In this document: positions 2,355 to 39,917 of the stretch, piece after piece
Layout of the letters: every line of letters starts with the position of its first letter
How positions within the stretch are numbered: position 1 is the first letter of the stretch
NCBI GenBank assembly: GCA_965228735.1
Contig: OZ245838.1
Span: forward strand, 4,640,001 to 4,704,000
DNA length: 64,000 nt
Origin: Planctomycetota bacterium
GTDB lineage: Bacteria > Planctomycetota > UBA1135 > UBA2386
Direction: 5' to 3'
The notes under the pieces: model-generated
Database searches by the model: none
What the model was told of the DNA's origin: nothing
The model's input: only the letters and a program-made list of their open reading frames with translations
Translations under genes and position numbers: made by a program

Positions 2355-3239
2355 CTAACGGCCCGGCAGCTGGTTTGTTGCAGCAAGAATCGTCGCGGCG
2401 GTTCGTGCGGCCCGAGTACCGGTGTGAGTGTTCGTGATCTTCTGCAGGGCCGCCCGAGCCGTATCGACGGTGCCGCCGGCAGCCGATTCCGTGAGAGCAT
2501 CCCGGAGCGCCTTCTCGGCCGTGATCTCGGCGACGAGTTCCGGCGCCCTCGTCCGCTGCAACAATCCTGCAGCTCTCGCTGCCAGGGTCGAGTTGGCGCC
2601 CGTTCTTTCGATGGCCTCGCAAAGCTCGGTCGCACGAGCGTATGCACCACTCGCCATTGCCTTCTCGGCGAGTCTCATGAGTCGGGCCAGGTCGCGGGCT
2701 CGATCGGCCGTGGTCGCGCGTTGCTCGGCGACGTAGTTCCGCACGGCGGCCATGTCGTCGAGTGGATTGCCCTCCATCACGACCGTGCCTTCGGGGGAGA
2801 GCAGGATGTACGACGGAACCGACTGTCGGTTCATCTCGAAGGGGTAGCCGTTCGTGAAGATCGCCGAGGTCCCGAACCACCCGCGTTCGAGCCCGAGGCG
2901 GAGAACGTCGTCGAGCTCGTGGCGTCGCTCGATCAGGATCGCCTGGAAGTGGTCGTCGAACTGACGCTGCAGATCGAGTGACGCCGGCACGGACGTCGCA
3001 ATGCAATGCCCTCAATTCTTGCCCCAGATCAGGATGAGCACGGGCACGCCGCGCAGGTCTTCGAGCGACCCTACTCCTCGGTCGTGGAACATCGGGCGAG
3101 AGAACTCGTGGCTCAGCCGATCGCCGACGCGGATGGCGCCGGGGCGGTGCGGTTGCCCGCGCGTCTTCTTGTACCAGTAGATTCCCGCGGCAGCCGCCAG
3201 GACGAGAACGGCGACCAGGATGATGCTCGGCGTCTTCAT
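2355..3239 (-). CDS. Thioredoxin-fold (TlpA/redoxin-like) membrane-anchored protein with an in-frame TGA, probably selenocysteine (UxxC)
   Basis: ORFs 3012..3239 and 2355..2990 are in the same frame, joined through TGA (3012-3014): LRGVPVLILIWGKN-U-GHC-IATSVP. There is an N-terminal hydrophobic anchor and a later VPSYILLSPEGTVV cis-Pro motif. The ATG overlaps the upstream deacetylase stop (ATGA). Confidence 0.75.
2980..2997 (-). promoter_or_regulatory. Candidate bacterial SECIS hairpin
   Basis: Stem-loop GACGUC-CGUGCC-GGCGUC whose apical loop starts 20 nt after the UGA and has G at its second position. Confidence 0.55.
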
Positions 3240-4303
3240 CGTCGGAGTAACTCACGGAAGCGGCACACCTCGGCCCGGAAGCCGGCTGAGTCGTGTTCGT
3301 CGTCTCGAACGACGGTGCGTTGCATTGTGATGGCGATGCGAGTCAGGTTGATCGGATTCGTATCGCGCTGGTTCATGCCGCCGTCACGAAAACCGGCGTA
3401 GCGGTAACCAGCCGCTCGAACGGCGGCCTCGACCCGCGCGTCCGAGTCGCCATTGGGGTAACACAGGCCGGAGACCGGCTTGTGGGTCCACTCTGCGAGC
3501 TGAGCAGCAGATTGGCGCAGCTCATGATCGAGGTCCGCGTCGTTCAGCAGCGGCAGAATCGGATGCGTCACCGAGTGCGAGCCGATCTCGTGGCCGCCGC
3601 GATCGAGCTCGATTACCTGCTCGGGAGTCATGGGGCGGCACAACGTGGCGTCGAAGGTGCCGCTGGCGACCGCCTGGGCCCGTTCGACGAACTCCATTCG
3701 CCGGGCTCCGGGGAGCGCCTTGAGGCTGTCGGTCCACGCCTGGCCGGTTGGAGGCTGCCCGTCGGCGGTAGCGGCCGAGGATTCACGCCGGACGGACCGA
3801 AGCAATTCGACCTGATCCTCGCGCGACAGCCGATCCCAGACGAATGCCGCCCGGTCGAACCACAACGCCTGGCCCGATTTCACGAAGTCGCTCGTGACGT
3901 AGAAGGTCCCTCGAACACCGTGCTTCTCGAGGATCGGAGCGGCTAGCGCGTGGTTGTCCCAATAGCCGTCGTCGAAGCTGATGGCGAGCAAGGGGCGACT
4001 CGCGGGACGGCCGTTCGCGAGTTCGTCCATGGCTTCTACGACCGGCAGAACCTCACAGTGCGACGCGAGCCACTCGACCTGGGCGTCGAACGAGTTCTGC
4101 GGAATCACCAGGCTCGCGAGCGGGTAATCGCGGCAATCCTCGAGCGGCAGCACGCGGTGATACATGAGGATCGTCAATCCGCGGCGCATTCGCCGTTCCA
4201 TCAGGCGCATCAATCCGGTCAGTTCGGCGACGCGGTCGATCCCCGAACGCAAGCGATGCTTGAAGGTGCGGGCGAGGCCAGGGGACTCGACGGCGGACGT
4301 CAT
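3236..4303 (-). CDS. Polysaccharide deacetylase (CE4/NodB family)
   Basis: Motifs ILMYHRV, ISFDDGYWD, EIGSHSVTHP and CYPNG. Start MTSAVES overlaps the upstream GT2 stop. Confidence 0.92.
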   Translation of the reverse strand: MTSAVESPGLARTFKHRLRSGIDRVAELTGLMRLMERRMRRGLTILMYHRVLPLEDCRDYPLASLVIPQNSFDAQVEWLASHCEVLPVVEAMDELANGRPASRPLLAISFDDGYWDNHALAAPILEKHGVRGTFYVTSDFVKSGQALWFDRAAFVWDRLSREDQVELLRSVRRESSAATADGQPPTGQAWTDSLKALPGARRMEFVERAQAVASGTFDATLCRPMTPEQVIELDRGGHEIGSHSVTHPILPLLNDADLDHELRQSAAQLAEWTHKPVSGLCYPNGDSDARVEAAVRAAGYRYAGFRDGGMNQRDTNPINLTRIAITMQRTVVRDDEHDSAGFRAEVCRFRELLRR

Positions 4304-5229
4304 CACTTTGCCAAGGCCTCGGTCCGAGTCCGCTGTGGTGATCGCAGGATTGGCGCCCGGAGTCGGTCGCGAAAGCGGTTGTCGCCGCGCCCGGTGAGTC
4401 GTTTCACCAACGACCGTACGCCAACGACGGTGACTTCCGCGCAGTCCGCGAACGCCGCGGCGACGACGCCGAAGTGCTTGCGCAGGTAGTAGAACCGACT
4501 CTCGTAGTAGTGCTTCGAGATGTCTTGCCCGTGCATCGTCTCGTTGGTCTTGGCGGTGCTCGCTCCTGCGAGGTGCGAGGCCACGGCTGCGCCCGTGACC
4601 CACAGCTCGTGACCGGCCTCGCACACGCGGCGACAGAGATCGGTCTCCTCGAAGTACAGGAAGAACCGTGGATCGAATCCGCCGAGCGCGACCATGACGT
4701 CACGACGCGCGAGCAGCACTGCACCGCACAGCCAGTCGGTCCGACGTGGGGCGGACCCCGGTGGGACCGGCTCACTGGGTGGGATCCTCCACCCCGCGGC
4801 GGCGGCAATGACGCGCCATGGAGTCGGCAAGGGATGGATCTTCTGGGCGGAACCGTTCGGATTGAGGATCGCCGGCGCCACGATGGCGGCCTGCGGGTGC
4901 TGCTCCAAGTGCTCCTGCAAGATCGCGAGTGCCGGCAAGGGCAGGACGGCGTCGGGGTTCAGGAACAGCACGTAGTCACCCTCGGCCATCGCCAGGCCGA
5001 TGTTGCACCCTCGACCGAAGCCGACGTTCTCCTTGCTCGCCACGACATCGACCCAGGGGAATCGCGATTCGACGGAGCCGGCCGTGTCGTCCGTACTCGC
5101 GTTGTCCACGACGATGACGCGCACCGTGCCTGCAGCTTGCCCGTCCGCGAGCGCCTCGAGCGCCGCGTCGACCGTGCCGGCTGAGTTGTACGTCACGATG
5201 ACGACCGTGATCGGGGCGCTGCGACTCAT
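4303..5229 (-). CDS. Glycosyltransferase family 2
   Basis: Motifs VVIVTYNS, VVDNASTD, NVGFGRGCN, LFLNPD and GFDPRFFLYFEETDLC. Confidence 0.93.
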   Translation of the reverse strand: MSRSAPITVVIVTYNSAGTVDAALEALADGQAAGTVRVIVVDNASTDDTAGSVESRFPWVDVVASKENVGFGRGCNIGLAMAEGDYVLFLNPDAVLPLPALAILQEHLEQHPQAAIVAPAILNPNGSAQKIHPLPTPWRVIAAAAGWRIPPSEPVPPGSAPRRTDWLCGAVLLARRDVMVALGGFDPRFFLYFEETDLCRRVCEAGHELWVTGAAVASHLAGASTAKTNETMHGQDISKHYYESRFYYLRKHFGVVAAAFADCAEVTVVGVRSLVKRLTGRGDNRFRDRLRAPILRSPQRTRTEALAK

Positions 5230-6245
5230 GACCGACCGAACAGTTTCTCGGGGAGCGTGGGGTAGGCCCCGCCGGTCTTGTAGCGGAAGAACGTCATCGA
5301 CTCCGGTGCCGCGATACGGGTGAGCTGGTAGGGGTCGGAGGCCGACGTGATCTGACGTCGGGCGCCCGACGCAACGGCAGAACTCAGCCCGGCGGCCTCG
5401 ACGAGATTCCGGCCGTCGGCGTCCGACCGACCATAGGGGAACGAGAAGTGAGCGGGTTCGTAGCCGAGCTCGCGACGGAACTCGTCGCAGCACGTGGTGA
5501 CCTCGTGGTCTCGCACCGCCGAATCCGCGTTCTGCAGGTCGCAGTGATCGGAGGTGTGTACGCCCAGCTCCATCAGGTCGTAGTCGTCGCGCAGTCGTCG
5601 AGCCTCGTCCCAGTTCATCGTCAGCCTGGGTCCGGTCTCCCGTGGCTGCAGCTGTTCCGTGAGGGTGGCCAGCAGGGCCTGACGCTGATCGAGGTTTCCG
5701 AGGATCATCGCCGAGTTGATCTCGGCACGGGCGCTTCGCTCGACGGGCCCGTGGTCGAGGCGAATCGGCGTATTGCGACCAGGCAGCGCCAGGTCCTCGC
5801 GGCTGCGGGTCCGGAAGATCGTGTGGACGCGGTCGACCCACTGATTCTCGCCGCGGCCCACGTATCCCGTACAGAGGTAGAGCAACGCTGGCAGTCCGAG
5901 CTCCGCGAGAATCGGCGCGGCGACCTCCAGGTTGTCGAGGTAACCATCGTCGAGAGTGACGACGACCGTTCCTGCTGGTGGTTCTTCGCCCTTCCGGATC
6001 GTTGCGACGAGGTCGCTGAGACCGATCACGCGACGGTGTCGCGCGAGGAACGTCATCTGTCGACGGAACAAGTTGGCGTCGATCGTGTTGGAAGGATCGT
6101 GCCAGCTACGCCGCTCCGGCGTGGAGACGCTGTGATACATCAGGATCACGGCGCCGACCGGCGACGCGGCGCGAACGTAGATCCAGGACAGGCCGCTCAG
6201 GTAGAGCCCCGCGTGCAGACCTTGCAAGACTCGTTGCTTCAACAC
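5226..6245 (-). CDS. Polysaccharide deacetylase (CE4/NodB family), second copy
   Basis: Motifs ILMYHSV, VTLDDGYLDN, LGVHTSDH and FSFPYG. Confidence 0.92.
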   Translation of the reverse strand: MLKQRVLQGLHAGLYLSGLSWIYVRAASPVGAVILMYHSVSTPERRSWHDPSNTIDANLFRRQMTFLARHRRVIGLSDLVATIRKGEEPPAGTVVVTLDDGYLDNLEVAAPILAELGLPALLYLCTGYVGRGENQWVDRVHTIFRTRSREDLALPGRNTPIRLDHGPVERSARAEINSAMILGNLDQRQALLATLTEQLQPRETGPRLTMNWDEARRLRDDYDLMELGVHTSDHCDLQNADSAVRDHEVTTCCDEFRRELGYEPAHFSFPYGRSDADGRNLVEAAGLSSAVASGARRQITSASDPYQLTRIAAPESMTFFRYKTGGAYPTLPEKLFGRS

Positions 6246-6302
6246 GGAGGAGATCGGTGCTCAGAGGCAGGCGGTTCGAGGTCGAGCGAAAGGGAGCGGC
6301 GA

Positions 6303-7025
6303 TCAGAAGTTCCCCACGGGGAAGGCGATCGGCAGCGGCAGGTTCTGGCGGATGTACTTGTCGACCCAGACGTTGATCTTGTCGATCATGTTGTTCGGGA
6401 CGTAGATCACGTCGTGCGGTTGGAGGAACACTGGTGTGCCGTCCACCCAGTTGTCGAGTCCGGCATCGAACTGCCAGACCTGGTGCCTTCGTTCGACTGG
6501 GAGCCAGCGGATCAGCATCGCTTCTTCGAGGAGTGCGGATCCCTTGACCGGCCCTCCGGCGCGTCCGATGGCCTCCAGGAAGGTAAGCTCACCGCGCCCG
6601 AACGCGACGACGCCCGGTATGTTGACCTCGCCGATCACCGTGACTTCGCGCGGCGCCGGGTCGATGATGTCGACGGACACGGTGCCCGCGCCCACCTCGC
6701 TCTGGTTGGCGTAGGCTTCGCTGACCTTGGCGCCGAGCGCCCCGACGGATAGTCCCACCAGCTGGAGCTCGCCCACGAACGTGAACGTCGCGCGGCCGTC
6801 GTCGCGCACGATGGTTTGGTGGTCCCACTCCGGCTTCTGCGGGAACCGCACACCGATCGTATCACCCGCGACGACGAACGCCTGTGGGGAGAGCGTCGCG
6901 TTGATGTCGGGAGCAACGGCACGCAAGGCCGGGAACGAGCAGCCACTGGCCAGAGTCAACGCCAGGAGTCCGAGAACTCGGCCCCCTGCTCGACGTGCCA
7001 ACGAATCACGGTTGCTCTCACGCAT
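6303..7025 (-). CDS. Polysaccharide export lipoprotein (Wza/OPX family)
   Basis: Lipobox LASGC; polysaccharide-export motif GDTIGV...VRDDGRATFTFVGEL; SLBB motifs VIGEVNIPG, AIGRAGG and LQPHDVIYVP. Confidence 0.9.
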   Translation of the reverse strand: MRESNRDSLARRAGGRVLGLLALTLASGCSFPALRAVAPDINATLSPQAFVVAGDTIGVRFPQKPEWDHQTIVRDDGRATFTFVGELQLVGLSVGALGAKVSEAYANQSEVGAGTVSVDIIDPAPREVTVIGEVNIPGVVAFGRGELTFLEAIGRAGGPVKGSALLEEAMLIRWLPVERRHQVWQFDAGLDNWVDGTPVFLQPHDVIYVPNNMIDKINVWVDKYIRQNLPLPIAFPVGNF

Positions 7026-7086: not shown

Positions 7087-7992
7087 CTACGAATCGGCGC
7101 GGGGAGTCGTTCGCGCTTCTCTGCCCGCGAGCCGTTCTGCCACCGTCCGGAGCTGACAAAGGTCGCGCGGCCGCGCCAGGCGGGAAACGCGGACGGAGCG
7201 CGCCAGTGCCACGCAGCTCTGCATCAGCGATTCGGGGCCGCTGACGCCGCTGAGAAGTTCGGGGAAGTACGAGTGCCGCAGCAACGCGACGCCCGCGGTG
7301 AGTCCGCGGAGCGGCGTCGGTTCGACGCTTCCGGTCGAACTCAGAACGTAGACGTGGCGCAGCCGGACCGGGCTGTCGGCACAGGATTCCGCGGGTACCC
7401 TGGCGACGCGCTTCTCGGGGCGGTCGCCGGGGCCGATGGGCCGGTTGTCCGGTACGACCTCACGGGTGGCCACCGGTCCGGGTGCGACCATTGGCTCGGT
7501 AGCCGTGGGGTCGATTGCCGCGATGTCGTCCGTCACGAACCGGCAGCCGAATTCGACCATGAGCCTGGCCAGCGTCGACTTGCCGACCCCGGAATCGCCA
7601 GCGAACGCGATGCCGGCCATCGTCGCGGGCTGCGCGACGCAGCTCGCGTGCAGGCAGAAGAATCCGCGTTGTTGCAGGAGCAGCCCCATGGCGGGGCCGG
7701 CGATGAACTGTGCGAGGTCCTGACTCGGCTCGACGTCTACGCCGGATGGCGTCACGGTGATCGATCGCCCGTCACGGACGCGCAGCGCGCCGACCCCGGC
7801 GCGCACGATCGTCGAGTCCTGCGGCGACAGCCGGTGCCAGTCGCCGCTGTGATCGGGCGGCGCAGCCCCGTCGGCAGGGAGTGACGAGGTTTCGATCGTG
7901 ACGTCCGTTGCGTCACGCGAGGATTCCGGCCGCAGGCTGGGGAGCGGTACTTCCGAACGGATGGACAGTCCGTATGCGCGGTATGTCGGCAC
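7087..7992 (-). CDS. HPr-kinase-related lasso peptide kinase (PadeK/PsmK-like)
   Basis: LHAS motif, Walker A GDSGVGKST and VTDD motif. Lies immediately downstream of the lasso precursor. Confidence 0.85.
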   Translation of the reverse strand: MPTYRAYGLSIRSEVPLPSLRPESSRDATDVTIETSSLPADGAAPPDHSGDWHRLSPQDSTIVRAGVGALRVRDGRSITVTPSGVDVEPSQDLAQFIAGPAMGLLLQQRGFFCLHASCVAQPATMAGIAFAGDSGVGKSTLARLMVEFGCRFVTDDIAAIDPTATEPMVAPGPVATREVVPDNRPIGPGDRPEKRVARVPAESCADSPVRLRHVYVLSSTGSVEPTPLRGLTAGVALLRHSYFPELLSGVSGPESLMQSCVALARSVRVSRLARPRDLCQLRTVAERLAGREARTTPRADS

Positions 7993-8010
7993 GGACGAAC
8001 TGCCTCAACG

Positions 8011-8026
8011 ACCGAGCGCGCTCGGT
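8011..8026. other. Perfect 16-bp palindrome between precursor and kinase (possible mRNA-stabilising stem-loop)
   Basis: ACCGAGCGCGCTCGGT is its own reverse complement. Confidence 0.45.
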
Positions 8027-8066
8027 TGAACTCGAACGGTCCTGGGCAGAGCCAGCTGGCCGAGCG

Positions 8067-8237
8067 TTAGCTCGAGCCCGGGTTCGCCCACGGGTTCCAA
8101 CCCGATCCCTGGCCGTTGAAGAATTCGCCCCAGCGGCCGCCAATCCATTGCGTGAGTTCTTCGACTCGGCCTTGGACTTCGATGGATGGCGTTTCGTAGG
8201 TGCGGTCGGTGTCGTTGGAGTGAGTCTGATCGTTCAT
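8067..8237 (-). CDS. Lasso peptide precursor (56 aa: 30-aa leader and 26-aa core WIGGRWGEFFNGQGSGWNPWANPGSS)
   Basis: Sequence MNDQTHSNDTDRTYETPSIEVQGRVEELTQ|WIGGRWGE... has the YxxPxI RRE motif, G-x-V-x-x-L-T with Thr at -2, Glu at core position 8, and a C-terminal Ser. It is flanked by the cyclase and kinase. Confidence 0.9.
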   Translation of the reverse strand: MNDQTHSNDTDRTYETPSIEVQGRVEELTQWIGGRWGEFFNGQGSGWNPWANPGSS

Positions 8238-8343: not shown

Positions 8344-10209
8344 TCAGCGCGAGCGGACCCAGAATCCGAGCAAGACGCCGAGCCAGAGCGCCATTCCGTC
8401 GGACTCCGCGATGCCACCGGGGGGTAGCGCCAGGATTCGGCGGAGTGCCCCGAGGTCCACGAACTCATCGAGGCCCGGAGAGTTGCGGAGTAGCGAATCG
8501 ATACGATCTCGGTCTGCGACCAGGAATCCCTGCTCGAACTGGTCACCCCAATGTGACTTGTGAACGCGAGTCCGGATTGCCTCGGGAACGATCCCGCGCA
8601 AGGCCCGGCGCTGGATGGCTCGATCGTAGCCGCCATGGAGTCGTTGCTCGGGTGGCAGCCCGTAGCAGAATTCGATCAGCCGGTGGTCGAAGTAGGGGTG
8701 CCGGTGATCGAGCCCGAACGCCGCGCTCGCCTTGTCGTGGACCTCGAGCGAGTGCGCGATCAGCGGGGTCGTCAGGGCGCGGTGGTGGGCCTCGCGCAAG
8801 CTTCGGGGCGGGCGGTTCGCCTCGACGACCGCCTGGCGATCTCGCATTCGGGCGGTCCAGTCGACTTCACGCGCAAAGCCGGGCGCGATGCTCGATGGCA
8901 CGGCCCCGAGTTCTCGTCGCCAGGAGCGGGTCACGGAACGGACCACCGGCGCGAGTCCGAAGTGCCAGAAGAACCGCTTCGTCGACTGCCGAAACACGCC
9001 GGCGAGTTGCCGGCACTCGCGCACGGCGCGAACGATGCGGCCGCGGCGCACGAGTTCGGCGAGCCAATCCGTGCCGTGACTGACGGTCGTGTCGCCATCG
9101 ACGCCGTCGATGACGGCTCGGATCCCGAGTTCGCGGGCGCGCCGGGCGAGTGACCAATAGACGTAGAGGTTGGGCGCGCAGAACGGTTCTTCGACCCGTT
9201 CGAGCATGGCGTCCACCTCGCGCAAGGGGCTCGTGCTGCTCGCCGAGACGAACTCTGCCGGCCACGGCTCGTTCGGTTCGTCGTCGCCGTTCGCCGCGAG
9301 GACCAGGTCGATGTACTGCCGCTCGTCGATCCGCGGGAAGTCGGGGAACAGCGCCGACAGCGTCGTGATCGGATGCGCTCCCCAGGCTTTCCGATTCGCG
9401 TGCGCGAGCCGGACCAGGCCTGACGAATCCAGGCCGCCGCTCAGCAGGATCGCCGTCGGCTCGTCGCGGTGCAGGCGGCAGCGGAGCGCTTCCGTGAGCG
9501 TGTCGCGGAAGCGCTCGGCATAGCTCTGGTCATTGGCCAGCTCGACGCGGTGATCCGGGTCGAGCGCCCAGTAGCGGCGCAGGGACTCCCCGCTCTCGCG
9601 GACGGTCAGGGAATGGCCGGGTGGCAGCCGTCGAACGTGCTCGTAGAACGTGCGGTCGTGGTCGGCGAATACCTGGCCGAGGTAGTCCGCGATCTTGCCG
9701 TTGTCGAGATCACGCGGCACGTCGGCGGCGTCGAGCAGCGGGCCGATCTCCGATGCGAAGACGAAACGCTCGGGCGCGAGGTGGTAGTAGAACGGGCGCG
9801 TTCCGAGGCGGTCTCGCGCGCAGAACAGCTGACGCTCGAGGGATGACCAGATGGCAACCACGAAGTCACCGAACAGGTGCTCGGGGCAGCTCTCACCCCA
9901 GCGTTCATAGGCCCGCAAGACGATGTCGGCGGGGGTCGCATCGGCCGGGGCGTCGAGTTCGGCTGCGAGGTCCGAGAGGTTGTCGATGCGGGCCGCGATC
10001 GCGGCGATTCGACCGTTGCGCTGCGCGATCGCGGCCTCGGACCCGGTCGGGGCGAGCACGCCGAACGCCGCGCCGGCCGTGTTCGTCGCGAGGCGAGCTG
10101 CGCCGCGATGCGCCATCCGACCGGCCATTGCGGCAATTCGGTCCCGGTCGAGGGGGCGTTCGTCCCGTTGCCAGGCTCCAACGAGCCCGCTGCTGATGAT
10201 CCCGATCAT
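8344..10209 (-). CDS. Lasso peptide cyclase (asparagine synthetase-like C protein)
   Basis: Motifs ARDRLGTRPFYY, FASEIGPL, LPPGH, PP-loop LLSGGLDSS, DGVDGD and RHPYFDHRLIEF. The N-terminal catalytic Cys of AsnB (CGI) is replaced by SGLVG. Confidence 0.92.
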   Translation of the reverse strand: MIGIISSGLVGAWQRDERPLDRDRIAAMAGRMAHRGAARLATNTAGAAFGVLAPTGSEAAIAQRNGRIAAIAARIDNLSDLAAELDAPADATPADIVLRAYERWGESCPEHLFGDFVVAIWSSLERQLFCARDRLGTRPFYYHLAPERFVFASEIGPLLDAADVPRDLDNGKIADYLGQVFADHDRTFYEHVRRLPPGHSLTVRESGESLRRYWALDPDHRVELANDQSYAERFRDTLTEALRCRLHRDEPTAILLSGGLDSSGLVRLAHANRKAWGAHPITTLSALFPDFPRIDERQYIDLVLAANGDDEPNEPWPAEFVSASSTSPLREVDAMLERVEEPFCAPNLYVYWSLARRARELGIRAVIDGVDGDTTVSHGTDWLAELVRRGRIVRAVRECRQLAGVFRQSTKRFFWHFGLAPVVRSVTRSWRRELGAVPSSIAPGFAREVDWTARMRDRQAVVEANRPPRSLREAHHRALTTPLIAHSLEVHDKASAAFGLDHRHPYFDHRLIEFCYGLPPEQRLHGGYDRAIQRRALRGIVPEAIRTRVHKSHWGDQFEQGFLVADRDRIDSLLRNSPGLDEFVDLGALRRILALPPGGIAESDGMALWLGVLLGFWVRSR

Positions 10210-10323
10210 GGAAACGTCGCGCCCCGGAGGACAGCGGCCGGAGCATACTGGCCGATGTTGCGTTACGCTTCCCGGGCCTTGCCGAGGGAAGTTCGGCACA
10301 TGTGGGTCGACCCGACGCAGCGC

Positions 10324-10623
10324 ATGACAGGAGACATCGGACTCAACTCGGTCGTTCGAGCAAACATTCGTCAGCTTTCGGTCGAGATCGACGGCGAGAC
10401 CGTCCTGCTCAACTTCGACGACGGATTCTACTACTCGATCAACTCGGTCGGAGCGCGGATCTGGACGCTGGTCCAGGACGCGACCCGAGTGTGCGACGTG
10501 AAGGCGGCGTTGCTTTCGGAGTTCGACGTCGACTCGGCCAGATGCGAGGCCGACCTGCTGGCGCTGCTCGCCGACCTCGAGGCGAAGAACCTCATCGAGG
10601 TACTCGATGCGGATCCTGCGTAG
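10324..10623 (+). CDS. PqqD-family RiPP recognition element (lasso B1/E protein)
   Basis: 99 aa: EIDGETVLLNFDDGFYYSINSVGARIWTLV...EFDVDSARCEADLLALLADLEAKNLI, a typical PqqD pattern. Confidence 0.92.
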   Translation: MTGDIGLNSVVRANIRQLSVEIDGETVLLNFDDGFYYSINSVGARIWTLVQDATRVCDVKAALLSEFDVDSARCEADLLALLADLEAKNLIEVLDADPA

Positions 10624-11053
10624 GTTCTGGCGGCTGTCGTTCTCCGAGAAGCTGATGCTCGGCAAGGCGTGGGGGTTGCTCGCCGTCGTGCGAAGCAGCA
10701 TGTGGATCGCGGGGTTCGCGCGGACCAAGCGCTGGGTCGATCGTCGACACGCGCGCGTGGAACGACTCGTGCGGTCGCGCCAGGAGCCGCATCGGATCGC
10801 CCGAATGGTCGAGATCGCGAGTCACTTCTTCCCTGGCGGTCGGCATTGCCTGAGTCGGGCGATGGTGCTCGAGGTGCTGCTGCGCCGCCGCGGCTACGAC
10901 GCCAAACTGGAGATCGGTGTCGCGTTGGCGGATGCACCCGTCCAGAGCGGGTCACGGCTCTCGGCGCACGCCTGGGTCACGCACGGTGACCGGATCCTTC
11001 TCGGTGGAGCCGAGGCTCCCGACTTCAAGCGGTTGACGCGGTCGGGTCGGTGA
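10607..11053 (+). CDS. Lasso peptide leader peptidase (B2, transglutaminase-like)
   Basis: Catalytic Cys in HCLSRA, the IGV motif, and His in AHAWV. Overlaps the RRE gene. Confidence 0.92.
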   Translation: MRILRRFWRLSFSEKLMLGKAWGLLAVVRSSMWIAGFARTKRWVDRRHARVERLVRSRQEPHRIARMVEIASHFFPGGRHCLSRAMVLEVLLRRRGYDAKLEIGVALADAPVQSGSRLSAHAWVTHGDRILLGGAEAPDFKRLTRSGR

Positions 11054-12051
11054 CTCGTTCGACGGACAGCTTCTCCGCGGCGGACGCGCCGCCTCGCATC
11101 CGCGTCACCGCGCTGCAGAAGCGCTACCCGCGGAACCGCAATCTGCTGCGGTTCCTGCGCGCGCCGCATCGCCGCGACTACACGATGGCGCTCCGTGGGG
11201 TCGATCTCGTGATCCCGCAGGGCGGCATCTACGCGCTCCTCGGCCCCAACGGCGCTGGCAAGACGACGCTACTGAAAGCGCTCTCGGGTCTGCTCCTGGC
11301 CAACTCTGGCACGATCGAGATCGATGGCATCGACCTGACGAACGAGCCGCGGAAGTTGCGCAATCGCGTCGCGCTGGCCGTGTGCGACGAACGTTCGTTC
11401 TACTGGCGCATCAGCGGCCGCGAGAACCTGCGGTTCTACGCGACGCTCAACGGGCTCGAGGGCGCGGCGCGCGATCGCCGGATCGATGAATGCCTCGCGA
11501 TGGTGCGGTTGGGGTCGGCTGGCGATCGGCGCTACATGGAGTACTCGGCGGGCATGCGGCAGAGCCTCGCGCTGGCGCGCGGGCTGTTGCTCGATCCGCC
11601 GATCCTCCTCATGGACGAGCCAACGCGGTCGCTCGACCCCGAGGCCACGGCGGCGGTCCACGATGTGATCACCGGGTTGCAGGCTGCCGATCCGAGCCGC
11701 GTGTTCTTCTACTCGACCCATGACCTGGCCGAGGCGGAATCGATCTCGAGTGATGTCATCGTGCTGCGGGGCGGGCGCATCGTGATGCAGCGGAGCCTCG
11801 CTCGCGAGGCCGGCTACGTCTACCGCGTGCGCACCCATCCCGAGCTGCCCGAGAGATTGCTCGACGACATCGACGGGCTGCAGGTGCTGGGCAGCTCGGA
11901 AGCCGGCACGGTCGTCGAGTTCGCCGAGTTCCGGACGCTCGATGCGGTGCTCGCGCGGCTCGCCGAGCGTCGTTTGCAGGTGCGCGAGGTCGCAGAGCAG
12001 CGGTCGCGGCTCGGCGAACTGTATCGCTCGAGCGCGGAGGCGCAGCGATGA
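11050..12051 (+). CDS. ABC transporter ATP-binding protein (likely lasso exporter)
   Basis: Motifs GPNGAGKTT, YSAGMRQ, LLMDEPT and STHD. Overlaps the B2 stop (GTGA). Confidence 0.92.
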   Translation: MTRSTDSFSAADAPPRIRVTALQKRYPRNRNLLRFLRAPHRRDYTMALRGVDLVIPQGGIYALLGPNGAGKTTLLKALSGLLLANSGTIEIDGIDLTNEPRKLRNRVALAVCDERSFYWRISGRENLRFYATLNGLEGAARDRRIDECLAMVRLGSAGDRRYMEYSAGMRQSLALARGLLLDPPILLMDEPTRSLDPEATAAVHDVITGLQAADPSRVFFYSTHDLAEAESISSDVIVLRGGRIVMQRSLAREAGYVYRVRTHPELPERLLDDIDGLQVLGSSEAGTVVEFAEFRTLDAVLARLAERRLQVREVAEQRSRLGELYRSSAEAQR

Positions 12052-12863
12052 GTCTGCCACGCACGGCTGTCGCGTTCCTGCGGCGCGAGTTCCTCGAAGA
12101 GGCGTCCTACCCGCTCAAGGTCGTGTTCGGGTTCGGCGCGGCGATCGTGAGTATCGGGTTCCTCGTAATCTTCGCCGACTTCGTCGGCGCCACGATGGCC
12201 GGCAGCGGTGAAGGGCGAATGGCACACGGCTACCTGCCGTTCGCGCTCGTCGGACTGAGCTTCCACACGCTGCTCGATACCGCTTTGCGCGAACTGAGCT
12301 CGCGGATTCGCCGGGCGCAGATGCAGGGCACGTTCGAGGCGCTGCTCGCGACGAGCACGCCGCTGCCCGTGCTCATGCTCGCGCTGCCGCTCTACCCGTT
12401 GCTGCGGACGTGCTCGCGATTCGTGTTGCTGCTCTTGTTCGGGTGGCTCGTCCTGGATGTGCCGCTCAGCTTCGGCAACTGGCCCGTCGTGCTCGTGGCG
12501 TTCGGGCTTGCCGTGACCGTCTTCACGGCGATCGGTCTCGTGTTCGCCGGCCTCACGGTCGTGTTCAAGCAGACCGAGCCGCTGATCGCCGTCTTCAACG
12601 CGTCGTGTTTCTTCCTCGGTGGCGTGATCGTGCCGTCGGGTGAGTTGCCCGCGGTGCTGCAATGGGTCGGCGTGCTGTTGCCGATCACCCCGGCGCTCGA
12701 GGCGTTCCGGATCGCTGCGATCGATGGTGGCGACTTCGCGGCTGCAGGGCCGGTGCTCGGACAACTGGCCGTCTTCGCGGTCGTCCTCGTGCCGTTCAGC
12801 GTCGTCGTGTTCCGCTGGTCGATTCGGCAGGCGCTTCGCGACGGCAGCCTCGGGCACTACTGA
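12048..12863 (+). CDS. ABC-2 type transporter permease
   Basis: Multiple hydrophobic segments, GTFEALLAT and LPAVLQWVGVLLPIT. Translationally coupled to the ATPase. Confidence 0.9.
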   Translation: MSLPRTAVAFLRREFLEEASYPLKVVFGFGAAIVSIGFLVIFADFVGATMAGSGEGRMAHGYLPFALVGLSFHTLLDTALRELSSRIRRAQMQGTFEALLATSTPLPVLMLALPLYPLLRTCSRFVLLLLFGWLVLDVPLSFGNWPVVLVAFGLAVTVFTAIGLVFAGLTVVFKQTEPLIAVFNASCFFLGGVIVPSGELPAVLQWVGVLLPITPALEAFRIAAIDGGDFAAAGPVLGQLAVFAVVLVPFSVVVFRWSIRQALRDGSLGHY

Positions 12864-14148: not shown

Positions 14149-15540
14149 ATGCGTGACGTCGTCGCGATCGTGCCGGCGGCCGGGCTCGGCGAACGGATGG
14201 GCGCCGACAAGGCGTTGCTCGCGCTCGGCGAACGCACCGTCGTCGAGCGGGTCGTGGCCACGCTGCGCGCGGCTGGAGTGAGCGACGTGCTCGTCGTGCG
14301 GCGACGCGGCGCGGAACCCCTGCCCGATGGGCTCGCGGCGACCGTGGTCGAAGTCGAACCCGGCGGTGAAATGGCAGACAGCTTGCGCGCGGCCCACGCG
14401 CGGTTGCCTTCGGGCGCTGGGCGAATCCTCGTGCTGCCGGTCGATCATGCGCTCGTCGAGGCCGACACCGTGCGGGCCGTCGTCGCCGTGCTCGACGATG
14501 CCGCCGACGCGCATGTCGCGTTGCCGACGTACCGCGATCGCCCGGGCCATCCGGTGGCGTTCGAGCGCGCGGTGTTCGACGAGATCACGGCCGATGGCGC
14601 CGTTCTGCGCGACCTGGTTCGGCGCGACCCCGACCGGGTGCGGACCATACCGACGGCGAATCCCTGGGTGCGCGCGGACCTCGATCATCCGGAGGACCTG
14701 CGCGCCGCGCGCGCGGCGCTCACGCAGGTGTCCCCCCTGTCGACCGTCGAACTGATGGCGCGACATCGCAGCCGGCGTTCGTTCCGCGACGCGCCGGTCC
14801 CGCGCGCGCAGATCGAACGACTCGTCGATGCCGCGCGCCACGCGTCGACGTCGAGCTACATCCAGACCACTACCGTGATCGCGGTGACCGATCCGCAGCA
14901 GAAAGGTGAGTGCGCGCGGCTCTGCGGGGGGCAGCAGCAGATCGTCGAGGCGCCCGTGTTCTTCGCGCTGTGCGCCGATCTGCAGCGGCTGGCGCGCGCG
15001 TGCGAGCGGCACGGGGCGACGTTGCAGAGTCAGAGCCTCGAGCTGTTCTTGCAGGCCACCGTCGACGCGGCGCTCGTCGGCCAGAACCTGCTGCTCGCGG
15101 CGGAGTCCGAAGGGCTCGGTGGTTGCATGATCGGCGGCGCGCGCAACCACCCGATCGAGCTCGCGCAGCTGCTCGGGTTGCCGGCCCATGCGTACGTCGT
15201 GTTCGGCATGACGGTCGGTGAGCCGATCGACGATCCGGCCGCGCGTGGTCGCATGCCGCTGACCGGCGTGCTGCACTTCGAGGGCTACGACCACGACGGC
15301 GTCGATGCGGCGCTCGCCGGCGCCGACGAGGTGATGAACGACTGGGCCCGCCGCGCGAACGCGCAGAGCGCCGGGTATGGCGGTCGACCCGTCGACGAGA
15401 CCAAGGGGTGGGCCGCACGCATGGCGCGCATGTGGGGCGAGGACGGTCGCTACGCCATCGCGCGTCGGACGCTCATGGCCGAGCTGCGGCGGCTGGGCTT
15501 CGGCCTCGCCGACGAATCGGCGGAGACGGGCGATGACTGA
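14149..15540 (+). CDS. Fusion of a MobA/MocA-like NTP transferase and an NfsA/FRP-like nitroreductase
   Basis: N-terminal half: IVPAAGLGERMG-DKALL, LPVDH, GHPV, DLDHPED. C-terminal half: HRSRRSF, ASTSSYIQ, VDAALVGQN, AESEGLGGCMIGG. Confidence 0.85.
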   Translation: MRDVVAIVPAAGLGERMGADKALLALGERTVVERVVATLRAAGVSDVLVVRRRGAEPLPDGLAATVVEVEPGGEMADSLRAAHARLPSGAGRILVLPVDHALVEADTVRAVVAVLDDAADAHVALPTYRDRPGHPVAFERAVFDEITADGAVLRDLVRRDPDRVRTIPTANPWVRADLDHPEDLRAARAALTQVSPLSTVELMARHRSRRSFRDAPVPRAQIERLVDAARHASTSSYIQTTTVIAVTDPQQKGECARLCGGQQQIVEAPVFFALCADLQRLARACERHGATLQSQSLELFLQATVDAALVGQNLLLAAESEGLGGCMIGGARNHPIELAQLLGLPAHAYVVFGMTVGEPIDDPAARGRMPLTGVLHFEGYDHDGVDAALAGADEVMNDWARRANAQSAGYGGRPVDETKGWAARMARMWGEDGRYAIARRTLMAELRRLGFGLADESAETGDD

Positions 15541-16263: not shown

Positions 16264-17358
16264 TTGAACGATCATCTACGCGCGATCCTGAAAGGAGTCT
16301 TCGGTGACGGCTCGGCCTCCCAGGCGGACGAGTTTCGGGCGGCCTGCAGCCGTGTACGGCCCGCGGACTGGGGCGGTTTGTTGCCGGAGCTGGAGAGTCA
16401 CCGCCTCGCGCCCCTGGTCGGCTACACCGCCCGCCGGCTCGATCTCGAGTCCGCCATTCCGTCGGCGCCACGGGAGCGGTTGCGGGAGTCGTATCGCGCG
16501 GCCTTTTTGTTTGCCGAACTACAGTCTCGAGCTCTGCGCGACATTCTGGTGGCCCTGCGCGCTGGCGGGGTCGAGCCGATCATCTTCAAGGGCCTCGTGC
16601 TGAGCGGCGCGTTCTATCCCGATCGAGGGGCCCGGCCGATGGTCGACGTGGACTTCCTGGTTGCGGTTTCCGAGCTGAAGCGCACGGTCCGCGCGCTGCG
16701 AAAGCTGGGCTACACGCGACGCATTCGCGATGGTGTCGTGGGGCCGAATGGGTTCGTCAACCCGTTCGGTGTCGTCATTGATCTGCATTGGCAATTCGAC
16801 TTGTTTGCCCCGGACCAGCATGCCGAGATCACTGAGGACCGCGCGATCCGAGAACTCGGAGAGCATCCGATTCGCTCGTGGGAGCCCAACGCGATGCTCG
16901 TCCATCTCGTGTACCACCTCGTCGGACATCGCGAAGGCACCGGGATCAACCTCGGCTGGCTCGTCGACATCGGGTTCCTCGTCCGTTCCGATGGCGATCG
17001 CATGAACGTCGACGCGATTCGTCGGCTCGCGCCCACCGATGCCTGCTTCGCGATGGTCTGGCGCATTCTCGCGTTCCTCGAACGCGACTGCGGTGTCGAA
17101 CTTCCGGCGCACCTCGCCCAGCAGGCGGCGCTTTACGAACCGCTCTCCCTGCCGCGCATCCTGCGCGAGAGCCGGCTTCGCCCCTGGGGCCTGCCCGGTC
17201 TCGTCGGTGCCGGACGGTTCCTGTTCCGGCGCGTGTTCGGCGGGTCCACCAAGCGTCGCAATCCGACCTTGACCGACCTCGCGCTCGCGATCACCGACCG
17301 GATCCAGGACCGCCGCGCGGACAGCCGCGCCATCGCGACCGTGCGAACGCAGTCTTGA
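16264..17358 (+). CDS. Nucleotidyltransferase family protein (NTP_transf_5-like, the type found in lasso clusters)
   Basis: Motifs GVEPIIFKG...YPDRGARPMVDVDFLV, IDLHW and WLVDI. Confidence 0.8.
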   Translation: MNDHLRAILKGVFGDGSASQADEFRAACSRVRPADWGGLLPELESHRLAPLVGYTARRLDLESAIPSAPRERLRESYRAAFLFAELQSRALRDILVALRAGGVEPIIFKGLVLSGAFYPDRGARPMVDVDFLVAVSELKRTVRALRKLGYTRRIRDGVVGPNGFVNPFGVVIDLHWQFDLFAPDQHAEITEDRAIRELGEHPIRSWEPNAMLVHLVYHLVGHREGTGINLGWLVDIGFLVRSDGDRMNVDAIRRLAPTDACFAMVWRILAFLERDCGVELPAHLAQQAALYEPLSLPRILRESRLRPWGLPGLVGAGRFLFRRVFGGSTKRRNPTLTDLALAITDRIQDRRADSRAIATVRTQS

Positions 17359-28763: not shown

Positions 28764-28886
28764 TCGGGGTTTCCGCGGATCGCGGTCGCGCGTGGCTTCG
28801 GATGAGACGGCCCGTCGCGCGATTCCGTGTTTCGCTTGGTTGGCTCGCTATGGTCGCGTTGGCGTGTCGGCGCTCGGCTTTCCGGT

Positions 28887-31800
28887 ATGGCGTCGAGCGT
28901 GGCCTCCGTACAGTCGGGATTTGATCCTCGATCTTGCCTCGCCCCGCCCCAAGCCGTGACAGCTCGTCTTGATCTGACTCCGACGCAAGCCGGTCTCCTC
29001 TGGCAGGCACTTGCACACCCTGAGACGAACCTCGAGCAGATCGTCTGCGTGCTGCGCGAGGACGTGAACCCCGCCGTTCTGGCACGGTGCTGGCAGGAGC
29101 TCGTAGATCGCCACGCCGTTCTGCGCTCCAGGTTCCGCTGGGGCGCGGCCGACCCAGAGCAGGTGTTCGAAGCGACGGCGACTTTGCCCGTTACGAACCT
29201 CGTCCTGGAACCAGGCGACGAGCGCGCTCGCGAGCGTGAGTTCGCCGAGTTCCTGCGATCCGACCGGCAACGGGGGCTGCAGTTGGACGAGGCGCCAGTT
29301 TGCCGCGTCACTCTGGTGACCTGTGGCTCCGAGACGCGGTGCGTGTGGACGTTCTCGCACGTGCTGTTCGATGGCCGATCATTCGTGGATCTGCTGGCCG
29401 AGCTGTTCGATTCGTACGACGCGGGTGTGGAACAGCGCCCGTGGACCGCGCCGGAGTTGCCGGACTACGAGCGCTATCGGGAGTGGCTGAGTGGCCGCGA
29501 TGCCGGCCCGGGAGTCGAGTTCTGGCAGCGCGAACTCGAGGGATTCGGGCGCGCCAGCCCCGTGCTCGTACAGCGGAACGCCGCGGGCCTCGATGGCCAG
29601 CACGTGGGCCCGTTGGCGAAAGTGACCCGGGTGCTCTCGGCGGATCGAACGGCGCGCCTCACGCGGGCCGCGAGCGAGCTCGGGGTCACGCCGAACAACG
29701 TGGTGCAGGCGGCCTGGGCGCTCACGCTGGCGGCCTACGCCGGTCAAAGTGACGTGGCGTTCGGCGTCGTCCGGGCCGGTCGGCACGGCACGGTCGAGGG
29801 CGCGGAACGGATGGTCGGCGTATTCATGAACACGCTGCCACTGCGCGTTCGGCTGCAGGAACACGGCACCGTGCGCGATCTGCTGACGGATCTGCGGCAG
29901 CGCCAGATCGCCTGGCGCGAGCACGAGCACGTGCCGCTCGCGACCATTCAGTCCGCTGCGGCGTCCGAGCGCGGGGCGCCGCTGTTCCACAGCATCCTCG
30001 TCTTCGACAATCGGAACCTCGACAGCCACCTGCATCGCGTCGGGCAGCCGGCGACTCGCTCGTTCGAGCTGCACGAGAAGACGGGCTATCCGGTCACGCT
30101 GTACGCCTACTGCGATGACGAGCTCACTCTCGCGATCGCCTACGACCGCGATCAGATCGAAGGCGAGGCTGCCGAAGAGGCCTGCGCCGGACTCGTAGAG
30201 TTGGCGCTCGAGCTCGTCGAACAACCAGACCGCCGCCTCGACGAGGTGGAGGTCATCGCATCGGACGTTCGCCGCCGCCTGCTCGAGTCCTGGAACGCAA
30301 CCGAGGTCGCGTATGCCCAGGAAGCGACGATCCCGATGTCGTTCCGCGAACGGGTCGAGATCGCGCCGGATCGGCCCGCGGTGACTGCCGGTGGGCGCAC
30401 GCTCGACTACCGGCAGTTCGCCGAGTTGGTGACCCGGATCGCGGGTCGGTTCCGGCAAGCCGGCGTCGGGCCGGGGGACGTCGTAGGGGTCTGCACGGGG
30501 CGGACCGTGGAGATGCTGGCGGCGCTCTATGCCATCATGGAGCTCGGCGCCGCATACCTGCCGCTCGACCCGGAGTTCCCCGAGTCGCGGCTGCAGTTCA
30601 TGCTCGAGGACTCCGGGGCGCGGGTCGTCGTGACCGATGCTCTCGGGGCGGATCGTGCGGGCCGCCTGGGCGTCGATACGGTCGCGCTCACCGATGCCGA
30701 CGCCGATGGCGATGATGCCCCGAACGAAGAACGGCCGGCGACGCGTTCGAGCAGCGATGACGCCTACCTGATCTATACGTCGGGCTCGACCGGCAAGCCG
30801 AAGGGCGTGCGGGTGACGCACCGCAACGTGCAGAACTTCTTCGCCGGAATGGACGAGCGCCTCGGGAGCGACGAGCTCGGCACCTGGCTCGCCGTCACGA
30901 GCCTGTCGTTCGACATCTCGGTTCTCGAGCTGCTCTGGACCACGTGCCGCGGGTTCCACGTGGTGTTGTACGGCGGCCTCAAGCAGGACGCACCGGTCAG
31001 CACCGGCCACCCGGGCTTCAGCTTGTTCTATTTCGCGGCCGACGCCGGGGAGGATCCGGCTGCGAAGTACCGCGTCCTGCTCGAAGGTGCCGAGTTCGGG
31101 GACCAGAACGGATTCGAGGCCGTCTGGACGCCGGAGCGCCACTTCCACGCGTTCGGCGGCCTGTATCCCAACCCGTCGGTCGTGGGAGCCGCGATCGCAG
31201 CGCGTACCCGTCGGATCGGGATCCGCGCCGGCAGCGTGGTTCTGCCGCTGCATCATCCGCTGCGAGTCGCCGAGGAATGGTCGGTCGTCGACAACCTCTC
31301 GGACGGGCGTGTCGGCGTGTCCTTCGCGTCCGGCTGGCACCCCAACGACTTCGTCCTGGCGCCCCACCAGTACGAGGATCGCAAGGCCAAGCTGTTCGAG
31401 AACATCGAAGTCGTGCGGCGCCTCTGGCGGGGCGAAGCCGTCGAGTTCGAGAACCCCAAGGGGGAATCGGTCGCCACTTCGATCCTGCCGCGGCCGATCC
31501 AGCGCGAGCTGCCGATCTGGGTCACTGCCGCAGGGAATCCCGAGACGTTCCGGCAGGCCGGTGAGCGCGGCGCGTTCCTGCTCACGCACCTGCTCGGTCA
31601 GACGGTGGCCGAGGTCGCCGAGAAGGTCGCGCTGTATCGCGAAGCGTGGCGGGCGGCGGGACACGCTGGCTCCGGTCGCGTGACCCTGATGCTCCACACG
31701 ATGGTCGGCGAGAATCGTGAGAACGTCAAAGCCGTCGTGCGCGAGCCGATGCGCGGCTACCTCCGCTCGTCGATCGATCTGATCAAGCAGCACGCGAGTG

Positions 31801-33392: not shown

Positions 33393-33425
33393 GGATCGTC
33401 CGCAACGAGCCAGACAGGACTGACG

Positions 33426-39400: not shown

Positions 39401-39917
39401 GATGCTGGACACCCCCGTGCCATCGCACGAGAAGTTGACCCGCAAGCAGAAAGCCCAGATCCACCTGATCCACTTGAAGCGTCGCGGAATCCGGTATCTC
39501 GGCGAGTGGGCGCTCAAACGGGCGCGCTGGGAACTCGGCCGATTGCGGGCTCGGTTCCGGGGCAAGGTCGAACTCGACAGCTCGACCTATCATTCGGACG
39601 ACGTCCGCGATGCGTTCGTGGTTGCCGTCCGGGACTACGGTTTCGCGCCGCAGCCCGTCACGATCCATCTCTTCCGGCCGGGTCTCGCCGTGCACTACGA
39701 CCTCGGCGACGGTGTGTTGTTGGACGCGGGGAGGCAACGGGTTCGAGAGGACAACGGTTGGCGCCCGCTGGTCGACGAGGTCCACGTCTCGGAAGTGCCC
39801 GGCAACCACGACAGCATGGTTCTCGAGCCCAATGTCCGGGTCGTGGCTCTGCGAATCCGCGAACTGCTCAAGCGGTGCGATCGCAAGCGGGCAGGCGGCG
39901 CCGGCTCGCGCGGTTGA
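33426..39917 (+). CDS. Type I PKS: KS-AT-KR(with embedded DH)-ACP-TE
   Basis: KS: DPQHR, NDKD, VQTACSTS, HGTGT, KGNIGH. AT: GHSLG. KR: ITGGLGEIG, HAAG-VDD, YVAAN. DH: HRTADGQAVFP, HPALMD. ACP: FFDLGGHSL. TE: GFSGG, GNHDSM. Confidence 0.95.
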   Translation: MSEGPGSSQADNRIAIVGMAARVPGANDPRSFWRNLCAGDEAIRFLDDDELAANGVEPGQIARPDFVRAYAGLADIRGFDADFFGLGPKEAAIMDPQHRHFLECAWEALEAAGHTPESVARSVGVFAGCGIGTYFALNILTNRQLLEDVGFFLLSHTGNDKDFLATRLSYSLNLEGPSISVQTACSTSLVATHLACQSLLGGECDLALAGGSTIKTPDGQGYVFKSGEILSPDGHCRPFDHKAAGTVFGSGVGVVALRRLEDALADGDHIHAVLLATAVNNDGAAKAGYLAPSLDGQAAAVSEALAVADITADTIEMIECHGTGTPIGDPIEVGALSQAFRESTDRTAFCRIGSVKGNIGHLDTAAGVIGLIKAALAVEKGKIPPNLHFERPNPEIDFENSAFVVNGELHEWRGTGPRRAGVNALGVGGTNAHAIVEQPPAPAPCSSPARTAQPIVVSARSPAALDAAAQRLAQFLDEESSVELADVAHTLRHGRRRFSHGRVVAGHTVAEVAELLTQKTGPRSFDVRASERPAKVAFLFPGAGPQHVGMGRDLRATESGFREITDRLLGIASKLVGVDLIELIDGPETPEVERQLERPSIQLPLVYVFDYAVARLWMDLGVQPVGMLGHSLGEYVAAAIAGVWSPEDGVALVHERGRLFESVTVESGMVTVELEPDRAAELGAGIEGLEVSVVNTPGNCVLSGPRAAIDTVVTELERREIDHRIVPIATAAHSSLLEPLLDTFRTFVAKLELRAPTIPFAANLTGRWIEDDEATDPDYWVKHFRHQVRFSDCLATIFSDPQVVMLECGPGRMLSSLAKRHPHGKGRVVLPSMRHPDEKVGDDVAFAAAAGRLWAAGVDIGFEHFTGPRRRRVPLPTYPFQHKDYWIEWRGPSAGSGPDQSQPPQPERFENVEDFFARLEWRPRAAPAAPLAVPEGSRFLVLLDKLGYGDAFVDELRRLDADVVVVREDDSFVERGSKEFCIAPEDGRAGFDRLVARLGEGDWSPTHVVSFWAVSREGDRRPGSSPLHHSEERGLYTLVYLIQALLGVGAAGPFRFVAVSCGMQRLPGDAPAEPEKSLVLGPARVLSRELPGSDCISVDIDRPPQRRLFGSERVADSSRRAIASDLLAECLSDGSATTIAIRGRERFELTNVKWPPPSASGDTTTAPSRVRQGGAYLITGGLGEIGRLFAARIVAAEPDVRLVLTARRGLPPREEWNNHARRSDALGEAIRAVIALERQGATVRVVAVDVTDIEAMRRIVTDAVRDFGALAGVVHAAGIVDDQLLQVAEAAAVESVLAPKVAGTLVLNELVSELPSLDFVFLFSSTSAWIAPAGQSAYVAANVFLDAFAESRSSATVPVCAVAWGIWREIGMAARAVGSRDDSGRVLATARATACKHPWLHECIGTAASGGIVDFRSSAGSSWVFDEHRTADGQAVFPGAAYFELVRGALAELGSSAQPPRGALAITDLFLFRPLVPGPDGEIAARVVVSLADDGGFEVRVEQRATTAGEGPWTLAAQAAAALTETATPAAATGRSAPTLEASAEPELEGAQQRRMRFGPRWSCLRTRNVDRDSGVVDGRLELRSSYHSDLESILCHPALMDVATGLGLELVDQSEGRLWVPVSCGGATLHHGLPPIVDVHVERTAHGGGEDRRFITMTVTLRDPESGTTLVELRDYTMRQADANSLASADDEGSAWGGGQEAAMDRHESPAERVFLENLSRGITPAEGAAAIDRLLAMQDLPHHVFVSSLSIDGLAAQTNWLRDHAAASGGEGFERPDLESTYSEPETATEKRLVEIWEDVLGVRPIGVEDSFFDLGGHSLIAVRLFARIKRDLGVDLPISTLLDVPDVRGSAAIIDEQAGASGEDSAGADGRFTYLVPLQGAGERSAGRSSGATAFFMVAGMFGNVMNLRHLASLVGSDRPVYGVQARGLFGGLEPHLSFEDMARDYLEEIRRVQPHGPYLLGGFSGGGITAYEMARQLRSQGEEVAAIVMLDTPVPSHEKLTRKQKAQIHLIHLKRRGIRYLGEWALKRARWELGRLRARFRGKVELDSSTYHSDDVRDAFVVAVRDYGFAPQPVTIHLFRPGLAVHYDLGDGVLLDAGRQRVREDNGWRPLVDEVHVSEVPGNHDSMVLEPNVRVVALRIRELLKRCDRKRAGGAGSRG

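Follow-up and report, generated by a model that had tools for sequence, protein, structure and literature searches.

PadeK, ThcoK and SyanK are reported to act on the precursor while it is still linear and to place phosphate on its terminal Ser (PMC9266682, PMC8498205), lasso kinases show little regard for the peptide beyond this Ser (PMC8498205), and several phosphates can be added by ThcoK and SyanK (PMC9266682, PMC8498205). In the pseudomycoidin system, the same reaction is reported for PsmK, and the attachment of one or two hexoses requires PsmN (PMC6993621). A motif consisting of His, Gly, Gly, Gly, Lys, Ser, Asp and Asp has been defined for BsfK and the known lasso kinases (PMC10368454). 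BsfK of Bradymonas modifies Ser3 with the aid of B1, its precursor BsfA ending in Asp (PMC10368454); the LPPs of Bacillota are likewise described as phosphorylated on Ser3, employ a signal peptidase and are often encoded in capsule loci (PMC13381572). The biological role of paeninodins and LPPs is stated in the same report to be still unknown (PMC13381572). Rings formed between Trp1 and Glu9 are reported for fusilassin and cellulassin (bioRxiv 2020.11.25.399105).

Here we describe a locus in the genome of a Planctomycetota bacterium, analysed as one stretch of 64,000 nucleotides (hereafter, the window). The window contains a full lasso gene set within an exopolysaccharide locus, and we hold it to be fairly probable that the kinase of this set phosphorylates Ser26 of the linear precursor. 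If this is true, terminal-Ser phosphorylation of lasso peptides extends to the Planctomycetota, for which no characterised example was found in the literature searched; the chemistry itself is not new. What is of interest lies at the family level: the last Ser is nearly fixed, the ring has repeatedly been lost, and the clusters are linked to glycan genes.

The lasso gene set

The features of the locus are listed in Table 1. As the original prediction had stated, the precursor gene lies directly upstream of an HPr-kinase-like gene and the core ends in PGSS; the two ORFs are on the same strand and are separated by 74 bases. The precursor has the leader motif YxxPxI...T(-2), in which Tyr, Pro and Thr, together with a Gly, are conserved in the alignment of the family precursors, and it scores 21.9 bits against the NCBIfam lasso leader model NF033521 (cut-off 19). 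The core, predicted to be released after Thr(-2)-Gln(-1), runs from Trp1 to PGSS, contains Glu8 as its only acidic residue and has Gly at position 3. With the queries used, no second precursor was found in the genome, the copy in Table 1 being the only one found. In the sister strain the precursor gene shows a single difference, which is silent and falls within the Glu8 codon. The gap between the precursor and the kinase holds no significant hairpin (z -1.63; 11 of 200 shuffles fold equally well), and a sigma-70 promoter scan gave 0 hits.

Table 1. Features of the lasso locus and its polysaccharide neighbours (positions in the window)
Feature	Position	Strand	Remarks
Exopolysaccharide genes directly downstream of K	3236..7025	minus	
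Second polysaccharide deacetylase	about 3236-4306	minus	
GT2	about 4303-5229	minus	
Polysaccharide deacetylase	5226-6245	minus	
Wza-type exporter	6303-7025	minus	
Putative precursor kinase K	7087..7992	minus	301 aa; GTG start, GAGG upstream
Altered kinase segment, Pro171-Lys194	7411..7482	minus	22 residues between instead of 30
Kinase motif, Asp155-Asp156	7525-7530	minus	
Kinase motif, P-loop	7576-7599	minus	
Kinase motif, His115	7648-7650	minus	
Lasso precursor A	8067..8237	minus	56 aa from ATG 8237
Precursor A, predicted core	8070-8147	minus	26 residues
Core residue Ser26	8070-8072		
Core residue Ser25	8073-8075		
Core residue Glu8	8124-8126		
Core residue Trp1	8145-8147		
Precursor A, leader	8148-8237	minus	
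Lasso cyclase C	8344..10209	minus	start approximate; NF033535 E 5e-150, 501 bits vs cut-off 525
B1, PqqD-type RRE	10300..10623	plus	start 10300 or 10324
B2, leader peptidase	10607..11053	plus	NF033537 above cut-off; catalytic Cys and His motifs present
ABC exporter pair	11050..12863	plus	
ABC exporter, ATPase	11050-12051	plus	
ABC exporter, ABC-2 permease	12048-12863	plus	
N, PsmN-like nucleotidyltransferase (NTP_transf_5)	16264..17358	plus	E 1.5e-41; DxD intact

The cyclase is AsnB-like, with intact SGGLDS and DGxDGD motifs and no N-terminal Cys; it scores just under the cut-off of NF033535, and its orthologue in genome G033 (G, L and P numbers are our handles for genomes, loci and precursors) scores above it. 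A YxxPxL-type leader with Thr(-2), the Glu8 acceptor, B1, B2 and a cyclase lacking the Cys, the features by which lasso clusters are recognised, are thus all present. The orthologues of the ABC exporter in related clusters are 59-60% identical. The N gene, which the original prediction had overlooked, stands 3.4 kb from the exporter, behind unrelated genes. Among seven related clusters found via the kinase, N abuts K in five, and it was not seen in the DNA examined at L018 and L021. We counted the N gene of the window into the system because it is 32-36% identical to the N genes abutting K in these five clusters, shares their motifs and retains DxD. The ORF between the lasso exporter and N (14149-15540) encodes a MobA-like NTP transferase fused to a nitroreductase.

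The kinase has the GDSGVGKST and TDD sequences originally noted for it: GDSGVGKST corresponds to residues 132-140, with Lys138 and Ser139, and a Thr precedes Asp155-Asp156, so that together with His115 the His-Lys-Asp-Asp motif is complete. In the alignment, every residue of the published BsfK/lasso-kinase motif is present. The motif alone leaves the site of phosphorylation undefined, because BsfK and LppK, which carry the same motif, phosphorylate the internal Ser3.

The locus resembles the psm cluster of Bacillus pseudomycoides (PMC6993621), as far as the latter is described in the available portion of the report, in its gene set (A, B1, B2, C, D, K and N), in the terminal Ser of the precursor, in an HprK-family kinase with Asp-Asp and in an NTP transferase with DxD. 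It differs from psm in its phylum, in the predicted Trp1-Glu8 ring, in the Trp-rich WNPW tail, in the ABC-2 type two-gene exporter, in the divergent gene layout, in the displaced N and in the shortened segment of the kinase. With the paeninodin, ThcoK and SyanK systems it shares a kinase adjacent to the precursor, the His-Lys-Asp-Asp motif and a conserved terminal Ser with free tail length (PMC9266682, PMC8498205); the window kinase, however, shares only about 28% identity with two paeninodin-type kinases and belongs to a separate clade, and the pade cluster, as reported, has no N whereas the window has one. BsfK (PMC10368454) and LPP (PMC13381572) systems are reported to share this kinase motif and to include an N as partner, but to phosphorylate Ser3; here a B2 is found in place of the signal-peptidase-type protease of the LPPs, and position 3 of the core is not Ser. 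Trp1 as the ring amine donor is shared with fusilassin and cellulassin, which differ in having Trp1-Glu9 rings instead of the predicted Trp1-Glu8 ring, and phosphorylation is not mentioned in the available portion of that report (bioRxiv 2020.11.25.399105). The original prediction had presented the combination of Trp1 with a C-terminal phosphoserine as having no known precedent. No such peptide was found in the literature searched, but both features are known separately, and the claim of novelty is weak because a combination of known, independent features needs no new chemistry.

A shortened segment in the kinase

The set of kinase homologues comprised 154 of 181 proteins, filtered by length and P-loop. 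The spacing between the positions of Pro171 and Lys194 is 30 residues in 143 of the 154, and a spacing of 22 residues was found in two only, the window kinase and the copy of its sister strain. The window kinase, which is 8 residues shorter, keeps Arg177 and Lys194 and has lost the Leu (96% conserved) and Trp (85%) that follow Arg177. The family-typical (K/R)LW segment, which is conserved in the homologue alignment but is part of no published catalytic criterion, is therefore absent. The model of an intact homologue has a strand and a helix at this segment; in the model of the window kinase the strand is kept and is followed by a low-confidence loop, and the remaining predicted structure elements match those of the intact homologue. 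An assembly error or frameshift as the origin of the lesion was rejected, since an independent metagenome contig (L096) is 100% identical and the sister strain shows no indel.

Because of this lineage-specific lesion, the motif match alone would overstate the certainty that the window copy is active. It might be that the terminal Ser is the target in the family and that the window copy has been impaired or repurposed, in which case the product would be a mostly unphosphorylated lasso peptide; we regard this as unlikely, though as deserving serious attention. It would agree with the facts that the deletion is unique to this species among the 154 homologues, that Leu-Trp and a helix have been lost beside conserved basic residues, and that N has been displaced from its usual place next to K. 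On the other hand, all published catalytic residues are retained, N keeps its DxD, and the Trp is likewise missing in three of the five nearest homologues. Selection also speaks against impairment. The sister strain is about 4% divergent in DNA, and its kinase gene, which aligns without indel, differs in 43 letters (26 silent; 11 changed codons, 7 of them within the last 61 residues), giving a dN/dS of 0.12-0.24 with p at most 9e-6 for these two strains, without a neighbouring-gene control. No acceleration of rate relative to the kinase of a relative was detected (Tajima chi2 1.47 and 0.28). The kinase copy is under purifying selection between two lesion-bearing strains, and, to judge from these sequence comparisons, it is probably a remodelled, yet working enzyme.

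The last serine as the probable target

A profile built from 8 precursors yielded 42 family proteins out of 310 candidates. A terminal Ser is present in 40 of the 42, which are related sequences and not independent draws and were found with a profile that itself contained the terminal Ser. These precursors span 12 core lengths (24-35 aa), the tails having altered in length many times with the final residue kept, and the two exceptions end in Gly or Asp. This share exceeds chance: as a background, 177 of 2644 (6.7%) long coding-like ORFs of this genome end in Ser. Trp comes first in the core in 39 of the 42 and Glu8 is found in 37. The last Ser is the sole Ser of the core in 8 family precursors, the position of Ser15 is occupied by Ser in 22, and Ser at -2 occurs in only 3, that of the window among them. 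The Ser-Ser pair, which the original prediction had put forward as matched to the kinase, was therefore rejected as a conserved feature, the last Ser alone being conserved; phosphorylation at S26, also predicted, retains the best-supported site. From these sequences the target is most likely Ser26 rather than Ser-Ser.

That the kinase is active on another Ser (Ser25 or Ser15), or on both terminal serines, is in our judgement improbable. Modification of an internal site has precedents in BsfK (PMC10368454) and LppK (PMC13381572), a change of register brought about by the altered segment is conceivable, and the window precursor is one of the few with Ser-Ser; yet neither Ser25 nor the Ser15 position is kept nearly as constantly as the last residue, and BsfA, according to the available portion of the report, ends in Asp, hence the BsfK precedent had no terminal Ser available.

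Because circularity was to be avoided, the 339 genomes of the order were searched with the precursor profile alone. Six full family members were obtained, and in all six the kinase gene is directly downstream. A sample of the phylum (401 genomes) gave one further family cluster, in genome G416, and this is an exception: N adjoins the precursor, the kinase is absent within 20 kb, and a kinase homologue is on another contig. The G416 cluster (L171:9007-14306) contains B1, C, A and N, with no match to a kinase or B2 nearby; the lone kinase, which is intact, is at L172:8249-9208, and the precursor has a run of ten glycines ahead of its last residues. A search of JGI metagenomes with the precursor returned three loci, of which L096 is real and two are chance matches. 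Metagenomes of coral and of macroalgae are among the sources of the related contigs.

The leader pattern failed on the precursors in the majority of the distant kinase loci, and those loci were therefore left uncounted. Eight other Planctomycetota kinase loci (L005, L006, L125, L128, L130, L131, L136 and L137) have unrelated precursors with lasso-type leaders that likewise end in Ser; some of these show no clear acceptor at 7-9, and some occur as two copies. Beside a PqqD-like gene, G729 has a tandem of three precursors whose leaders are of the lasso type and whose cores are rich in Cys (L167:1289-1850).

Relationship of the kinase to HPr kinase

The original prediction had placed the enzyme with the precursor kinases PadeK and PsmK rather than with HprK, and phylogeny, in which PadeK and PsmK are represented by two paeninodin-type kinases, agrees with it. 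The tree (LG+G4, 21 rows) contained two annotated or syntenic paeninodin-type kinases and two HprK proteins, with PadeK and PsmK themselves outside it. In this tree the window kinase and five kinases adjoining family precursors form one clade with a support of 100/98. Forced grouping of the window kinase with the two HprK proteins, which are long branches, was rejected (AU p=0.024). An earlier tree (mixture model, 17 rows), from which the 21-row tree differs by the addition of six rows and the dropping of two long ones (L137 and L048), was less resolved: the HprK pair stood apart from the other rows (79/92), and there was no placement for the window kinase. In two paeninodin-type clusters the same kinase family adjoins precursors ending in Ser.

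The match to Hpr_kinase_C (PF07475) covers residues 126-174 only, at 27.8 bits (cut-off 33.3), and the TIGR00679 (HprK) score is 25.2 bits (cut-off 240). An AlphaFold model of the kinase (pLDDT 88) matched HprK (1kkl) over residues 110-300 only (Z 14.4, rmsd 2.5, 136 aligned), and its match to PEP carboxykinase extended from residue 1 to residue 295 (Z 17.5, rmsd 4.3, 257 aligned); in the model, the entire kinase including its N-terminal domain looks like a cut-down PEP carboxykinase fold more than like HprK. The profile alignment with PEP carboxykinase covered only the stretch from His to Asp-Asp, with Arg177 and Lys194 outside it, and among the structures matched by sequence or fold there was no solved lasso kinase. 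The kinase is scattered in its distribution, occurring in 12 of the 339 genomes that represent the order, and it was not found in two genomes of the same genus (88-90% complete). Canonical HprK thus shares with it the fold of the catalytic domain, the His, the P-loop and Asp-Asp, and differs from this low-scoring, patchily distributed enzyme tied to lasso genes. The assignment as a precursor kinase of the PadeK/PsmK type, and not as HprK, is supported by clade, rejected grouping and predicted structure. That the gene is the HPr kinase of the organism, placed next to the precursor by chance, is hardly credible in view of these scores, the rejected HprK clade, the partial match of the model and the scattered occurrence in a phylum where full-length HprK was not found among 201 genomes, even though the genome, with the queries used, held no second PF07475 match and encodes an HPr with a Ser46-type motif about 1.9 Mb away.

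Proposed pathway

By analogy with PadeK, ThcoK, SyanK and PsmK, K would use ATP-Mg to place one or several phosphates on the hydroxyl of Ser26 while the ring is still open. According to the leader motif and the family alignment, B1 would bind the leader and B2 would remove it by a cut behind Thr(-2)-Gln(-1); C would then link Trp1 and Glu8 into an 8-residue ring that leaves a tail of 18 residues. N may add one or two hexoses to the phosphate, as PsmN does, a step for which we see the chances as roughly balanced, and the ABC pair would export the product. The computed [M+H]+ values are 2833.27 for the lasso peptide, 2913.23, 2993.20 and 3073.16 with one, two and three phosphates, and 3075.29 and 3237.34 with one phosphate and one or two hexoses. 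Polyphosphorylation of the product is conceivable. Since N is PsmN-like, the end product may be phosphoglycosylated, and a phospho-hexose is a plausible final state. The prediction of a product phosphorylated at S26 is thus qualified in two respects, as the kinase lesion lowers its certainty and phosphate may not be the last addition.

Judged from the sequences, the peptides of this family would be previously undescribed phosphorylated, possibly phosphoglycosylated, lasso peptides made by known chemistry. No description of the precursor family was found in the literature, in a search whose scope ended short of subscription papers and supplementary genome-mining tables. The family offers a natural test set, with 42 precursors, a nearly fixed last Ser, a genus that contains both ringed and ring-less forms, and a kinase that carries a deletion of natural origin.

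Relatives without a ring

Asp or Glu at positions 7-9 is absent in 5 of the 42 family precursors, and three of these acceptor-less precursors come with genomes (G032, G091 and G092). The search of these three genomes, which are 94%, 87% and 70% complete, two of them sharing a genus and the G032 cluster beginning at a contig edge, gave only weak matches to the cyclase (E 5e-24 or worse, 27-33% identity for the long ones). In G033 and G093, whose precursors have Glu8, cyclase orthologues were found at E 3e-189 and 1e-106. The gap between B1 and the precursor in L017 and L019 is 240-440 bases, at the place that holds the cyclase in the window. All three ring-less relatives retain B1, B2 (with Cys and His motifs), K and N. 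In the 21-row tree the G032 kinase groups beside that of G033, away from those of L017 and L019, which implies that acceptor and cyclase were lost at least twice. The cluster versions without cyclase and acceptor are at L017:1237-1368, L019:6801-6932 and L020:3123-3245. P0221, which retains Glu8, P0199, in which Ala replaces it, and P0200, whose ring region is shortened, look like a graded series.

The LPP cores are also reported to be released without a cyclase (PMC13381572); there, however, a signal-peptidase-type protease is described, whereas the ring-less relatives keep B2 and the terminal Ser. One speculative reading, which we consider doubtful, is that the family can do without the lasso ring and that what matters is the phospho-serine tail, the peptide serving as a carrier, primer or surface anchor linked to sugar via a Ser-phosphate bridge. 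It would make the family a RiPP built into the glycan coat, with the window as a ring-bearing form with a remodelled kinase. The basis of this reading is that acceptor and cyclase disappeared together, by the tree at least twice, and that B1, B2, the kinase, the nucleotidyltransferase, WNPW and the terminal Ser are retained beside exopolysaccharide genes.

Polysaccharide genes around the locus

Downstream of the kinase the window contains exopolysaccharide genes (Table 1), and the locus continues upstream of the window with GT4, flippase, epimerase, sulfotransferase and true amidotransferase genes. The clusters of G033, G035 and G252 are likewise flanked by polysaccharide genes, and LPP and paeninodin clusters have been reported in capsular polysaccharide loci (PMC13381572). 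The G252 cluster adjoins Wza and a priming sugar transferase, with no ABC exporter match in the surrounding 40 kb. Inside the polysaccharide locus of the window, a large ORF with a carrier-protein (PP-binding) domain is found at 3-2141 on the minus strand. Elsewhere in the window, at 28827-39914, there are a hybrid NRPS, in which a luciferase-like monooxygenase domain is embedded, and a PKS with a thioesterase.
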